From assembly GCA_963717435.1 (NCBI GenBank), contig OY970332.1, forward strand, positions 96,001 to 160,000: 64,000 nucleotides of DNA, written 5' to 3'. How positions within the stretch are numbered: position 1 is the first letter of the stretch; each line of letters begins with the position of its first letter. Origin of the DNA: an uncultured bacterium (GTDB lineage: Bacteria; Babelota; Babeliae; Babelales; Babelaceae). The translations under genes and the position numbers were made by a program. The notes beneath the pieces were generated by a model, which ran no database searches, was not told where the DNA came from, and was given only the letters and a program-made list of their open reading frames with translations. This document shows positions 53,797 through 64,000 of the stretch, piece after piece.

Positions 53797-54576
53797 TTAT
53801 ATAGTCCTGCACCCCACAACCGCGATTATAGAGCTTGGTTTTAATTTTTTTATCTCTTTTGCTAAATTTACCAAAGTCGATCCAGTCGTCATAAGATCGT
53901 CAACTATTAAAATTTTTTTATTTTCGAAAGCCCCTCCCTCGATACATTCTACTTCGCCAAGGCTACGTAGAACACTCGGGACGAGCGGGTGTTTAATTTT
54001 ACTCTTAAATTTTATAAAAAATATATTTATTAAATTATTTAAATAACTATATTTTTTTAATTCAAAAGCGTTTTTTAAATTTGACTGTCTTTGATGGCTC
54101 AGAAGAGCTCTCTGGAACAAAGTTTTTTTATTTCTCCGCACAACATCAATTACTGGTTTGCCGCTAAATTTTGATATTTCTCGCGCCATTATTTCAGCCT
54201 GATTAAATCCACGACGCGAAAGCCTTGTCCAGTGTAATGGCACAGGAATTATAAAATCAAAGTCTAGATTTGAAATATCTGTTTTTTGCCAAATAATCTG
54301 CGCAAGCTGCTTGCTTGCCAATCTATCAGAAAATATTTTTGCCAAAATTAATTTTTTGAGCGGGTATTTATACTCTGATGCTGCATAAACTGACATCTTG
54401 TATTTTGGCGTAACTTCTAGTGTACAGGAGACAACCGGAGTAATTTTTTTAAAGCAGTCATCACAAAAAATATAATAATCTTTTAGAAATATATAGCAGT
54501 AGGCACAATATGGAGGCGATAAAATTTTATAAAATTTATCTAAAATAAATTTCACAAATTTAAAATTAAAAAGCAT
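53797..54576 (-). CDS. comF: ComF-family phosphoribosyltransferase-like protein with in-frame palindrome insertion
   Basis: CxxC..CxxC, IPVPLH..RRGFNQA, ILIVDDLMTTGST. Confidence 0.9.
   Translation of the reverse strand: MLFNFKFVKFILDKFYKILSPPYCAYCYIFLKDYYIFCDDCFKKITPVVSCTLEVTPKYKMSVYAASEYKYPLKKLILAKIFSDRLASKQLAQIIWQKTDISNLDFDFIIPVPLHWTRLSRRGFNQAEIMAREISKFSGKPVIDVVRRNKKTLFQRALLSHQRQSNLKNAFELKKYSYLNNLINIFFIKFKSKIKHPLVPSVLRSLGEVECIEGGAFENKKILIVDDLMTTGSTLVNLAKEIKKLKPSSIIAVVGCRTI
53935..53989 (+). repeat. Palindromic element, type A frame with nested type B module (inside comF)
   Basis: tccc TCGATACA ttcta cttcgccaaggctacg tagaa CACTC ggga CGAGCGG. Confidence 0.9.
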
Positions 54577-61293: not shown

Positions 61294-62217
61294 ATGGAAA
61301 AAATAATTCTCTTTTATAAATACGTAAAACTAACCTATCCACACCAAGTTATGAAATGGCAAAGACAGCTTTGCTCGCAACTTGGCCTAAAGGGCAGAAT
61401 CGTGCTTGCAACAGAAGGCATTAATGGCACACTGGGCGGATCGGTAGAGGCTTGCGAAATTTATAAGAAAGAGATGGAAGCCAGCGAATTCTTTAAAAAT
61501 ATAGACTTTAAAGAAAGCGAAGGTGGAGCAGACTGCTTTCCAAGACTAGAAATCAAAGTTAAAAAAGAAATTACACATTTGGGTCTGGATACAGAACTTT
61601 ATACAGCAGAAAATGGTGGAATACACTTAACGCCAGAAGAAGCCCATAACTTAATGGCAAATCCTCCAAAAGATTTGATTATTCTTGATGGTAGAAATAA
61701 TTACGAAGCGGCAATTGGCAAATTCGTAAATGCTATAACACCTGATGTTAACCATTTTAGAGAGTTTCCAAATTATATAGATAATAATTTAGAGCAGTTT
61801 AAAGATAAAGAAGTCTTGATGTATTGCACGGGTGGGATACGTTGCGAACGCGCTTCAACTTACCTAAAATCTAAAGGCGTAGCCAAAAACGTTTACCAAA
61901 TTCTTGGTGGAATACACAGATATGCAGAAAAATATCCTGATGGCTTTTTCAGGGGCAAGAACTACGTATTTGATGCACGAGTAACTGTAAGAATTAATGA
62001 CGACATTTTGGGTTCTTGCAAGTTTTGCAATATCCCATTCGATGATTATACTAACTGCGTTAATTCTGTGTGCAATAAGCAGATTATAGTTTGTCCAAAA
62101 TGCTGCCAAGAGAATATTAATACGTGTAGTGCTGCATGCGCAGAACTTGTAAAAAACAAATCTGTAGTTGTTCGTCAAAAGCCTAAAAAGATTAATATAT
62201 CAGCTTGTAGTATATAA
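61294..62217 (+). CDS. trhO: Rhodanese-related tRNA U34 hydroxylase (UPF0176/YceA)
   Basis: LFYKY, GRI..EGINGT, DGRNNYE..GKF, YCTGGIRCE, GGIHRY, YVFDAR. Confidence 0.9.
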   Translation: MEKIILFYKYVKLTYPHQVMKWQRQLCSQLGLKGRIVLATEGINGTLGGSVEACEIYKKEMEASEFFKNIDFKESEGGADCFPRLEIKVKKEITHLGLDTELYTAENGGIHLTPEEAHNLMANPPKDLIILDGRNNYEAAIGKFVNAITPDVNHFREFPNYIDNNLEQFKDKEVLMYCTGGIRCERASTYLKSKGVAKNVYQILGGIHRYAEKYPDGFFRGKNYVFDARVTVRINDDILGSCKFCNIPFDDYTNCVNSVCNKQIIVCPKCCQENINTCSAACAELVKNKSVVVRQKPKKINISACSI

Positions 62218-62236
62218 AATTAAGGGGTTGATTATC

Positions 62237-63418
62237 ATGACCGTTCAAACTGTAACTGAAAATTATAATAATTTAGTTAATTTTGATCATGAGTTGATCC
62301 AAGTTAATATCCCGCTTAAAGACAAAATTTGGTTCAGAACCGGTGGTCCCGCTAAATATTTTTGTGAACCCAAAAACGCACAAGAATTCGGGCGAGCACT
62401 CGATTTTGCAAAATGTAATAATCTTGAGATTTTTGTTCTCGGCCAAGGCGCTAATGTTCTTGTCAGCGATGACGGCTTTGACGGACTTGTTATCAGGCCA
62501 AAAATAAATTTTATAGAGTTACTCGATCCCTCGATACAAAATTCCTGCGGAATTTCACTCGGGACGAGCGGGTCATCTTCAAATAATATAAGCACAGTAG
62601 ATACAAAAAAAACAGAAGAAATAAACAAACAAGAAGATCTCAACAAAGAAAATTTATCCCACCGCTCGTCCCGAGTGTTTTTCGAAAGCGAAGCTGAGAA
62701 AAATGTATCGAGGGATATTGCGGACCAAACACTTGTAAAATCAGGCTCGGGAGTAATCTTTCAAGATTTAATTAATTTCTGCTTAGACAATAACATGGTT
62801 GGCCTAGAAGAATTTAGTGGAATACCCGGCACAGTTGGCGGATCAGTATTTATTAATATTCACTACTTTGAGTTTTTATTGAGTCAGTTTTTAGAATCAG
62901 CAGAAGTAATAAATAAAAATAGCGGCGAAATATTAACTGTCGATAAAAACTGGTTTAATTTCGGGTATAACTATTCACAACTTCATGAAGAAAAATATTA
63001 CTTAATCTCTGCAACTTTTAAATTAAAAAAAGCTACCGAACTTGAAGCTGCTTATTCTCGCGGACGTAGCCATGAGATAGCAAGACAAAGAGCAAAAAAA
63101 TATCCTGTAACAAATACATGCGGCAGCTTTTTTAGAAACTTTCATGATCACGAAGTTACGCTTGTAAGTAATAATAAAAAATTAATTTATGTTGCTTACT
63201 ATTTAGACAAAATAGGAGTTAAGGGGACATTATCTGTTGGTGATGCGATAGTATCTTATCAACATGCTAACATGATAGTTAATAGAGGCGCTGCAACTTC
63301 TAGTGATATTATTAATCTCGTAAAAACCATGCAACAACTTGTTAAAGAAAATTATAATATAACACCACAACCTGAGTGCAGATTAATTGGTTTTAAAGAA
63401 TACCCATTATTAAAGTAA
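62237..63418 (+). CDS. murB: UDP-N-acetylenolpyruvoylglucosamine reductase with in-frame insertion of ~63 aa
   Basis: FRTGGPA, LGQGANVLVSD, GIPGTVGG, GSFFRN, HANMIVNRG, PEC. Confidence 0.93.
   Translation: MTVQTVTENYNNLVNFDHELIQVNIPLKDKIWFRTGGPAKYFCEPKNAQEFGRALDFAKCNNLEIFVLGQGANVLVSDDGFDGLVIRPKINFIELLDPSIQNSCGISLGTSGSSSNNISTVDTKKTEEINKQEDLNKENLSHRSSRVFFESEAEKNVSRDIADQTLVKSGSGVIFQDLINFCLDNNMVGLEEFSGIPGTVGGSVFINIHYFEFLLSQFLESAEVINKNSGEILTVDKNWFNFGYNYSQLHEEKYYLISATFKLKKATELEAAYSRGRSHEIARQRAKKYPVTNTCGSFFRNFHDHEVTLVSNNKKLIYVAYYLDKIGVKGTLSVGDAIVSYQHANMIVNRGAATSSDIINLVKTMQQLVKENYNITPQPECRLIGFKEYPLLK
62527..62715. mobile_element. Inverted pair of type A palindromes (62527-62572 + and 62662-62715 -) forming a 189-bp MITE/REPIN-like unit inside murB
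   Basis: tccctcgataca..cactcgggacgagcgg and ccgctcgtcccgagtg..tgtatcgaggga around an A-rich spacer; mobility is inferred. Confidence 0.75.
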
Positions 63419-63423
63419 TTTTA

Positions 63424-63472
63424 TCACGCGACCCTTCGATACACCCTGCGGGCACTCAGGGCGAGCGCGTGA
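63424..63472 (+). repeat. Palindromic element, type A (intergenic, after murB)
   Basis: tcacgcg a ccct TCGATACA ccc tgc ggg CACTC aggg CGAG cgcgtga. Confidence 0.88.
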
Positions 63473-63518
63473 AAATAAATTATATAAAACTAAGCATTAA
63501 ATTTGAGAGTTTATTTTT

Positions 63519-64000
63519 ATGACACTAATATTTGTTTTATACGCACTTATTGCATCAACTTTTGTTATGGCAAAATATGCACTGTTTTATGCAAAGCCCA
63601 TATTTTTGATAGGGGTCAGGATGGTACTGGCCGGAACAATATTATTGGGCTATTTAAAATTATTTGATAAAAACAATTTTAAAATCGACAAAACTGATAC
63701 TAAAAACTTTCTTCTAGTAGCTTTATATCACATATATTTGTCTTTTATATTAGAGTTTTGGGCGTTGCAATATTTAAGCTCATCAAAAACTAATATTATT
63801 TATTCGATTACGCCGTTTATATCTGCTTTTATAGCTTATTATTTTTATAAAGAAAAACTTAATATATATAAAAAAATTGGAATGCTCTTGGGGATTTTGG
63901 CTATAATCCCAGTTTTAGTGGCGCAGTATAACCCACAAGAATCTGGCTCTATACTTAATTTCTCAACTGCTGAAGTTGCCATGCTTGCGGCAGTTTTTTT
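63519..64000 (+). CDS. EamA/DMT-family transporter, 3' end runs off the window
   Basis: MTLIFVLYALIASTFVMAK..PIFLIGVRMVLAG..ALQYLSSSK..ITPF..KEKL. Confidence 0.85.
   Translation, partial: MTLIFVLYALIASTFVMAKYALFYAKPIFLIGVRMVLAGTILLGYLKLFDKNNFKIDKTDTKNFLLVALYHIYLSFILEFWALQYLSSSKTNIIYSITPFISAFIAYYFYKEKLNIYKKIGMLLGILAIIPVLVAQYNPQESGSILNFSTAEVAMLAAVF

Follow-up and report, generated by a model that had tools for sequence, protein, structure and literature searches.

Rickettsia palindromic elements (RPEs) are repeats of ~150 bp; for R. conorii, PMC10969869 gives 44 insertions into metabolic genes, with almost half in open reading frames (ORFs). The QMITE1/2 repeats of Coxiella burnetii are described in PMC5896051 as small non-autonomous repeats that form in-frame ORF fusions, some of them with promoters. 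Here we analyse a 64,000-nt stretch of DNA (the window; positions 96001-160000 of contig OY970332.1) from a one-contig genome of an uncultured member of the Babelaceae, phylum Dependentiae (1,198,203 bp, 34.6% G+C). Inside its murB gene, which encodes UDP-N-acetylenolpyruvoylglucosamine reductase (62237..63418, + strand), lies an inverted pair of ~56-nt units with an 88-nt A-rich spacer between them (62526-62716), in frame with the gene. We propose that this insert is probably an RPE-like selfish doublet, shaped like the REPINs formed by paired repetitive extragenic palindromic (REP) sequences, and that it is translated as a tolerated surface loop of MurB. Positions refer to the window unless marked as genome positions.

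An inverted pair of structured units inside murB

The original prediction, made from the letters of the window, described two copies in opposite orientation, with different inner stems, around an A-rich spacer, and this arrangement is seen both in the inverted repeats and in the sequence. Two perfect inverted repeats join the arms, one of 13 nt (62526-62538 / 62704-62716, 100%) and one of 16 nt (62556-62571 / 62662-62677, 100%), and the doublet ends, ATCCCTCGATACA and TGTATCGAGGGAT, are terminal inverted repeats of the type found in MITEs (miniature transposable elements with inverted repeats). The left arm (unit 1, 62517..62580, + strand; genome 158517-158580) matches a covariance model of the unit with 63.5 bits (E 1.6e-11) and is composed of the 5' strand of helix P2, TCCC (62527-62530), the loop TCGATAC (62531-62537), an inner hairpin (62538-62555), CACTC (62556-62560), GGGA (62561-62564) and CGAGCGG (62565-62571). 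The right arm (unit 2, 62653..62725, - strand; genome 158653-158725; 65.2 bits) has a longer and different inner hairpin, the reverse complement of ATTTTTCTCAGCTTCGCTTTCGAAAAA, where the left arm reads AAAATTCC-TGC-GGAATTT. The spacer (62573..62660, + strand) is translated as SSSNNISTVDTKKTEEINKQEDLNKENLS; it was not found repeated elsewhere in the genome, where its matches were only scattered low-complexity 14-mers. The 15-mer CACTCGGGACGAGCG, allowing up to three mismatches, occurs six times in the window against 0.13 expected, a count reached in 0 of 100 shuffles. In the predicted RNA fold of 62515-62727 (-67 kcal/mol, z = -7.2; as stable in 0/200 shuffles) one arm is base-paired to the other and the inner hairpins fold separately, in line with the earlier suggestion that the RNA could form one long hairpin.

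The murB frame (62237-63415) runs through the element uninterrupted by a stop codon. The prediction was right about the open frame and needs correction in its lengths: the repeat spans 191 nt, the 189 bp given before omitting the terminal A and T and not being codon-aligned, and the figure of exactly 63 codons for what is indeed an in-frame insert depends on the ends chosen, the excess over 11 orthologs being 58-62 residues. The added peptide, DPSIQNSCG..EKNVSRD, corresponds to residues 97-160 of the product. A third unit, of a variant type (CCCTTCGATAC...CACTCAGGGCGAGCG; 63422..63477, + strand; genome 159422-159477; 52.2 bits), lies directly 3' of the murB stop codon; in the relative G006, units flank murB on both sides (L009:1402-1465 and 2560-2625) and none lies inside.

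The MurB protein is intact around the insert

Translation, Pfam and the Protein Data Bank (PDB) identify the ORF as a MurB of 393 aa plus stop. Its Pfam matches are MurB_C (1.7e-18) and FAD_binding_4 (1.4e-12), the latter in two stretches split at the insert, with the best stretch, residues 163-235, covering profile positions 62-138. Solved MurB proteins matched by the product are 3tx1, 4pyt and 1hsk; Listeria MurB (3tx1) aligns only with residues 11-87 and 165-385, and between these blocks there are ~77 residues here versus ~11 in the crystal protein. The split profile and the interrupted 3tx1 alignment place the insertion in the FAD-binding region, where it had been expected.

The possibility that this murB is a non-functional copy had been raised from the start; what we find is one intact gene without a second copy, and elsewhere in the genome there is just a 31-aa match, to another copy of the element. 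All family-invariant columns of 11 aligned sequences are kept, and both the GSFFRN serine and the C-terminal PECxxxGF glutamate are present, residues that we take to have the catalytic role they play in E. coli MurB. Two Mur ligases of the same genome are intact as well. At residues 243-247 the product reads GYNYS, with YNYS here versus YRFS in 3tx1. The position of the YRFS arginine, an active-site residue in E. coli MurB, is N or D in the 11 aligned relatives, a clade-wide change that is unrelated to the insert.

An AlphaFold2 model of the product (alignment of 11 sequences) has a mean predicted local distance difference test score (pLDDT) of 68.7 and a predicted template modelling (TM) score of 0.69, and superimposes on solved MurB 1hsk and 3tx1 with a TM score of 0.85, normalised to the target. 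Residues 101-159 are modelled without secondary structure at pLDDT <50 and are placed between strands 93-95 and 164-170, and the blocks flanking the insert reach pLDDT 79-95. A structure model had been suggested as a check for a surface loop, and it renders the insert as a disordered loop between two strands; the insert is most likely a tolerated, disordered surface loop of MurB, judging by this model.

The insert in orthologs and close relatives

In 29 of 30 relatives, all from other genera, murB was matched in two pieces, the first ending at residues 90-112 and the second resuming at 155-169, and the subject DNA between the pieces contains no gap of ~190 nt; one relative was unmatched. The ortholog alignment proposed earlier as a way to find the site without the insert gave the same picture: in each of its 11 orthologs, 58-62 residues are missing between ..RPKINFIELL and IADQTLVKSG... 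The insert is present in P0002, a partial protein of 302 aa from another metagenome that is 97% identical. Relative to the window MurB it has two substitutions and an additional codon, the three changes lying within or next to the spacer, and its arm peptides are identical. Because this independent metagenome protein has the insert, the insert is not an assembly artefact, a concern that had been stated with the prediction, and because the indel is exactly one codon, the frame has been maintained. Run X1 likewise has a 233-nt contig that is identical over the left junction, although this contig may stem from the source sample.

Contigs of close relatives in runs X2 and X4 (moss and lake metagenomes, with flanks matching at roughly 85-97%) have a different sequence at this place. 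The segment replaced is 62515..62721 (+ strand), with joints from 62514 to 62722 in X4 and from 62517 to 62722 in X2, so that 204-207 nt give way to 30-33 GC-rich letters that are in frame as 11 codons. Because these letters take the place of the element, what the closest strains have is another short allele, as opposed to a cleanly empty site. The murB junctions show no direct repeat.

The unit belongs to a large, structurally conserved repeat family

The consensus of the unit is ATCCCTCGATAC, a variable hairpin and CACTCGGGACGAGCGG, in the order (flank) ATCCC, TCGATAC, variable hairpin, CACTC, GGGA and CGAGCGG. A pattern search finds 106 full units in the 1.2-Mb genome, and the covariance model gives 121 matches at E <= 0.01. 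This model and the covariation test were built on 47 units from this genome, its relatives and other phyla. Helix P2, the 4 bp beside the boxes, is paired in 95% of cases, and 4/4 of its pairs are changed on both sides (TCCC/GGGA, CCCT/AGGG, TGGT/ACCA); helix P3, the inner hairpin, is paired in 92%, and changes on both sides are seen in 6/6 of the pairs tested. Covariation scores 0.56 versus 0.18 in shuffled alignments (reached by 0/500), and at most 0.21 when partners are slid. The internal loop TCGATAC/CACTC and the GAGCG of the tail are invariant in 47/47 units. The architecture is that of a module with two covarying helices around an invariant asymmetric internal loop, followed by the CGAGCGG tail. 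An outer helix in the fixed register 13-16/74-77 was rejected: pairing there is only 52%, since the 5' flank uses three or more registers to pair with CGAGCGG.

Wobble pairs are nearly absent (1 T-G versus 10 C-A/A-C, too few to tell the folding strand), and because of this the data leave both the folding strand and the choice between RNA and DNA undecided. The two replication strands carry 58 and 48 units, without bias. The cumulative GC skew of the genome is lowest near 499 kb and highest near 1067 kb, which would make the replichores unequal, and the gene-strand bias is weak (336 versus 297 long ORFs). Adjacent opposite-strand pairs number 22 among those listed, with spacers of 2-88 nt, six of them being overlapping matches to a single copy.

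Several intergenic -/+ pairs (genome 193741-193905, 438284-438454, 452905-453058, 830579-830749 and similar) have a common AT-rich spacer that reads like a sigma-70 promoter (TTGCAT, 16-17 nt, TATAAT/TATAAG) and points into a unit with the inner stem AATCACC...GGTGATC. Many intergenic -/+ pairs also have an outer motif, CTGTTGAGTTTTACATAAATTG, at 35-50 nt. The pairs with the promoter-like spacer may represent a gene for a small RNA, or a composite element of larger size.

The genic units lie in open host frames

We counted a unit as genic when it lies in frame, at least 45 nt from either end, in an ORF of at least 200 codons. By this definition 29 units reside in 24 long ORFs, and all 29 are open in the host frame. 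Genic units are depleted, though far from absent (29/106, 27%, versus 68% expected at random; binomial p = 2e-17), and selection acts against most genic copies. Their orientation is antisense to the gene in 18 cases and sense in 11. By our reading all six frames of the unit are used, and the conserved boxes contain no stop in any frame.

Pfam families are found for 20 of the 24 host ORFs, leaving 4 without. The hosts are MurB, SufBD, PGI, RecR, a ComF-like phosphoribosyltransferase, GpsA, a SpoU methylase, MnmG, a transketolase-family protein, NTP-transferase, GT2, AsnB, two Mur ligases, PGM, GT1, NurA, MiaA, a class-I tRNA synthetase that also has a +/- pair, and a heparinase II/III-like protein with two units. 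Across recR, comF and murB the element is read in both orientations and in all three frames of one strand, exactly as had been noticed at the outset: the reverse-complement box reads ARAEC in recR, PLVPS in comF and RSSRV in murB, and the forward box reads DPSIQ in the left arm of murB. The recR unit (9795..9868, + strand) has the antisense reading PARAECSSEPFAEKNVSRH in an ORF on the - strand (9597-10298; Pfam Toprim_4 and RecR_C), and the unit in the ComF-like phosphoribosyltransferase gene (53925..53997, + strand; ORF 53797-54576, - strand; Pfam Pribosyltran) has the reading HPLVPSVLRSLGEVECIEGG.

One MurB loop is entered repeatedly

The 121 closest MurB proteins of a large protein collection were surveyed for the segment between residues 88 and 167. 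It measures 11-18 aa in 103 proteins, 19-23 aa in 5 and 31-94 aa in 13, and no insertion of 8 or more residues was found at any other internal MurB site in the 121-protein alignment. Several of the loop inserts read as element peptides (PSIHFA..NTQDER, VRPECF..NVSKG). At the DNA level, two variant units arranged +/- around ~81 nt of A-rich spacer occupy the same position in locus L123, whose MurB is 58% identical; L123 is the only one of 80 other metagenome murB loci with units inside murB. The similarity between the spacers of the window and L123 is marginal (score 20 versus 15 +/- 2.4; reached by 42/1000 shuffles). Locus L140 was discarded as a case of a large insert: its tblastn span is 1738 nt, but murB there is a normal ORF of 327 aa.

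We placed the inserts on a MurB tree from which the loop columns and the partial P0002 were omitted (120 rows, quick IQ-TREE; 52/117 inner branches unresolved). The 12 insert rows need 11 changes on this tree, at least 8 of which are forced by well-supported branches, and four insert rows have insert-free sisters. The sisters P0007 and P0082 have loops of 73 and 18 residues at branch lengths of ~0.01, and within one clade the loop length varies stepwise from 16 to 73. The same MurB loop is entered by the element in several related lineages. Two other hosts were compared in this way: a RecR that is 92% identical (P0124) is without the unit, and the distant homolog P0219 has an insert of its own in the same loop; among GpsA homologs, one other carries 27 aa inserted at the corresponding site, not recognisably derived from the element. 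This recurrence reflects either very few permissive loops under long bombardment, or a site that is preferred or renewed by gene conversion.

Distribution across genomes and search for a mobiliser

A 16-mer of the repeat, with at most one mismatch, is present in 34 of 151 sampled genomes of the order, and a reversed-pattern control gave 0. Its distribution is patchy: it occurs in 13 of 20 other families, and six genomes have 20 or more copies. The exact pattern of both boxes (24 specified letters) is found in Dependentiae, Babeliales and TM6 records and also in records of Myxococcota, Myxococcales, Solimonas, Sinimarinibacterium (including an isolate) and Gallionellaceae. The hairpins from other phyla covary and often end in UUCG- or GNRA-like loops. 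One 7.1-Mb Myxococcota genome has 17 copies, as -/+ pairs in an element of ~215 nt with terminal repeats CTGACCCATCCCCAG, and Sinimarinibacterium has three units in one intergenic region. A contig (L017, which is G145:C98, and L056) is titled Candidatus Saccharimonadales and comes from a genome placed in the same order as that of the window, so that either label or binning is off.

Profile searches for Y1_Tnp (PF01797), the family of REP-associated tyrosine transposases (RAYTs), gave 0 matches in this one-contig genome, with control genomes positive, and found no RVT_1, TnpB-type or DDE_Tnp_1 genes in it either. Across the order, Y1_Tnp is present in 18/34 genomes with the repeat versus 36/117 without it, a weak association in which kinship is ignored, and of the six genomes that reach 20 copies just two have it. 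No unit was found within ~1.5 kb of four Y1 loci in other genomes. A link to RAYTs is not supported by these results. The only multi-copy transposase of the genome is an IS481-like gene (rve_3 + HTH_32) in 3 copies (genome 349486-350544, 618258-619298, 638304-639344); it was dismissed as a parent, its ends, GTTCATATACATATGAGACT..., being unrelated to the repeat. One IS481-like copy adjoins a tRNA-like GGGTTCGATTCCC sequence. The genome also has 3 dispersed copies of a toxin-antitoxin-like HEPN and nucleotidyltransferase gene pair (genome 224352-225042, 538575-539307, 862348-863038).

Origin and fate of the insert

Our preferred explanation is that a doublet of a short, structured, multi-copy selfish repeat landed in murB, in the part that codes for a length-variable hairpin loop splitting the FAD-binding domain. 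Since the conserved boxes are free of stops in every one of the six frames and the added length is divisible by three, the gene stays open. Transcription and translation of murB most likely continue through the element, which would leave the enzyme with ~62 additional residues in a hydrophilic, disordered surface loop that it tolerates. At least 23 further long ORFs of the genome have been entered likewise, the murB hit being one of at least 29 such events, and we therefore consider that the repeat works like the Rickettsia palindromic elements, with a REPIN-like layout.

Several points weigh against this explanation. The inserts in MurB (13/121) are all in one loop, which random insertion followed by selection may not fully explain. 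A target-site duplication of the element could not be defined and no transposase could be tied to it, so that the term mobile element derives from the copy number, the patchy distribution and the polymorphism of insertions. Only 11 aligned sequences underlie the AlphaFold2 model, and any segment whose homologs are missing from the alignment would be given a low pLDDT, as the insert is. Finally, a search for RNA runs that contain the murB stretch gave none; the translation of the insert and the retained activity of the enzyme are inferred.

The confinement to one loop can be accounted for differently if the MurB loop is a preferred target, or an old remnant refreshed by gene conversion from other copies. 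We regard this as possible, though not as the likelier course of events. It is favoured by the 13 long loops without an insertion of 8 or more residues elsewhere in MurB, by the element peptides in several of them and the L123 pair at the same position, by the 11 changes needed for 12 insert rows and the loop difference between the near-identical sisters P0007 and P0082, by the different 30-33-nt allele in runs X2 and X4, by the stepwise loop lengths within one clade, and by the second lineage with an insert in the same loop of both RecR and GpsA. However, the flanking DNA of the window and L123 differs, with no shared target motif evident, and their spacer similarity is marginal; alignment in a variable loop cannot fix the inserts to an exact codon, the tree was made by a quick method with many unresolved inner branches, and a very strict structural filter on an essential enzyme could yield the same one-loop pattern. 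A broader version we likewise regard as possible but not likely: the 56-nt unit may be a mobile structured module shared by Dependentiae, Myxococcota and Gammaproteobacteria, moved by machinery outside the known small-repeat mobilisers, that in Dependentiae returns to the same few loops of essential enzymes by targeting or by gene conversion onto remnants. If so, these loops would be fast-evolving length polymorphisms even between near-identical strains.

Other explanations concern what becomes of the insert once it is in the gene. Co-option, with the insert serving the mRNA as a regulatory RNA hairpin or the protein as a loop that has its own function, would fit the identical arm peptides of the 97%-identical relative, whose three changes are all in or beside the spacer, and the promoter-like TTGCAT-N16-TATAAT spacers of intergenic -/+ pairs. 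We think it unlikely, given that nearly all orthologs are without the insert, that the insert is predicted to be disordered and that the arms are conserved genome-wide as DNA, which alone explains identical arm peptides. The very stable predicted hairpin raises the idea that the element is removed before the protein is finished, by RNA processing or protein splicing, but this is very improbable: the frame and the absence of stops are kept in the close relative despite an indel of exactly three nucleotides, 29/29 genic units are open in the host frame, and Pfam finds no intein or Hint domain in the product, only FAD_binding_4 and MurB_C. Known mini-inteins are well above ~63 residues in size. 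A search of 62000-64000 against Rfam, including ribozymes and introns, gave only four chance-level matches at E <= 5, the best with 17.6 bits versus thresholds of at least 40. Least probable of all is that murB is decaying or that the insert is an artefact, for which no supporting evidence was found beyond the fact that Dependentiae genomes are reduced; the intact single-copy ORF with its invariant residues, the two intact Mur ligases and the recurrence of the insert in P0002 and in the X1 contig all speak against it.

Significance and comparison with known systems

This would be the second large independent case, after Rickettsia, of palindromic repeats inside essential genes, here in another phylum of intracellular bacteria, and its copies provide natural insertion-tolerance maps of enzymes that include MurB, Mur ligases, RecR and a tRNA synthetase. 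That one MurB loop has been used again and again, with presence and absence between near-identical sequences, makes the element's choice of site or its survival there testable. The same 24 specified letters in unrelated phyla, without a known mobilising enzyme, raise the question of what recognises the motif. We suggest that further work is best directed at the recurrent use of one MurB loop and at the core motif shared across phyla. No reports of such repeats in Dependentiae were found in the literature, searched by box strings and by topic, and the main texts of PMC6561590 and PMC4776705 make no mention of palindromes, MITEs, repetitive sequences, inverted repeats or transposition.

REP sequences and REPINs resemble the repeat described here in being short, GC-rich, imperfect palindromes with covarying stems, in forming inverted doublets foldable as one long hairpin, and in their hundred or so copies per genome. 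REP sequences have a GTAG-type 5' head, which the unit lacks. In contrast to REPs and REPINs, which are extragenic, 27% of the copies here are inside genes, and the cognate RAYT gene of the REPIN-RAYT system is absent from this genome. The REPIN- or MITE-like layout recognised by the original prediction is therefore confirmed as a layout, whereas membership in the REPINs is not, as this one-contig genome has no RAYT-type gene. Bacterial MITEs are likewise small non-autonomous repeats that are sometimes in frame inside ORFs and sometimes have promoters; unlike in MITEs, a direct target duplication is not definable here, and a parent insertion sequence with the same ends was not found.

The closest likeness is to RPEs, which are also palindromic repeats present in many copies in an intracellular bacterium with a small genome. 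They too are inserted in frame in numerous housekeeping genes unrelated to one another, and such insertions are considered compatible with the fold of the protein. The features of that kind present here are a hairpin palindrome in 106-121 copies and in-frame insertion in many unrelated genes. Unlike RPEs, the repeat belongs to the phylum Dependentiae, a placement drawn from the names of homologs and related records, and its sequence appears unrelated. Its basic unit is a 56-nt hairpin with a strictly conserved asymmetric internal loop, present singly or in doublets of either orientation, its core is also found in other phyla, and the same protein loop has been entered in several lineages. Overall, these repeats are a new family of RPE-like elements, in a phylum new for such elements.

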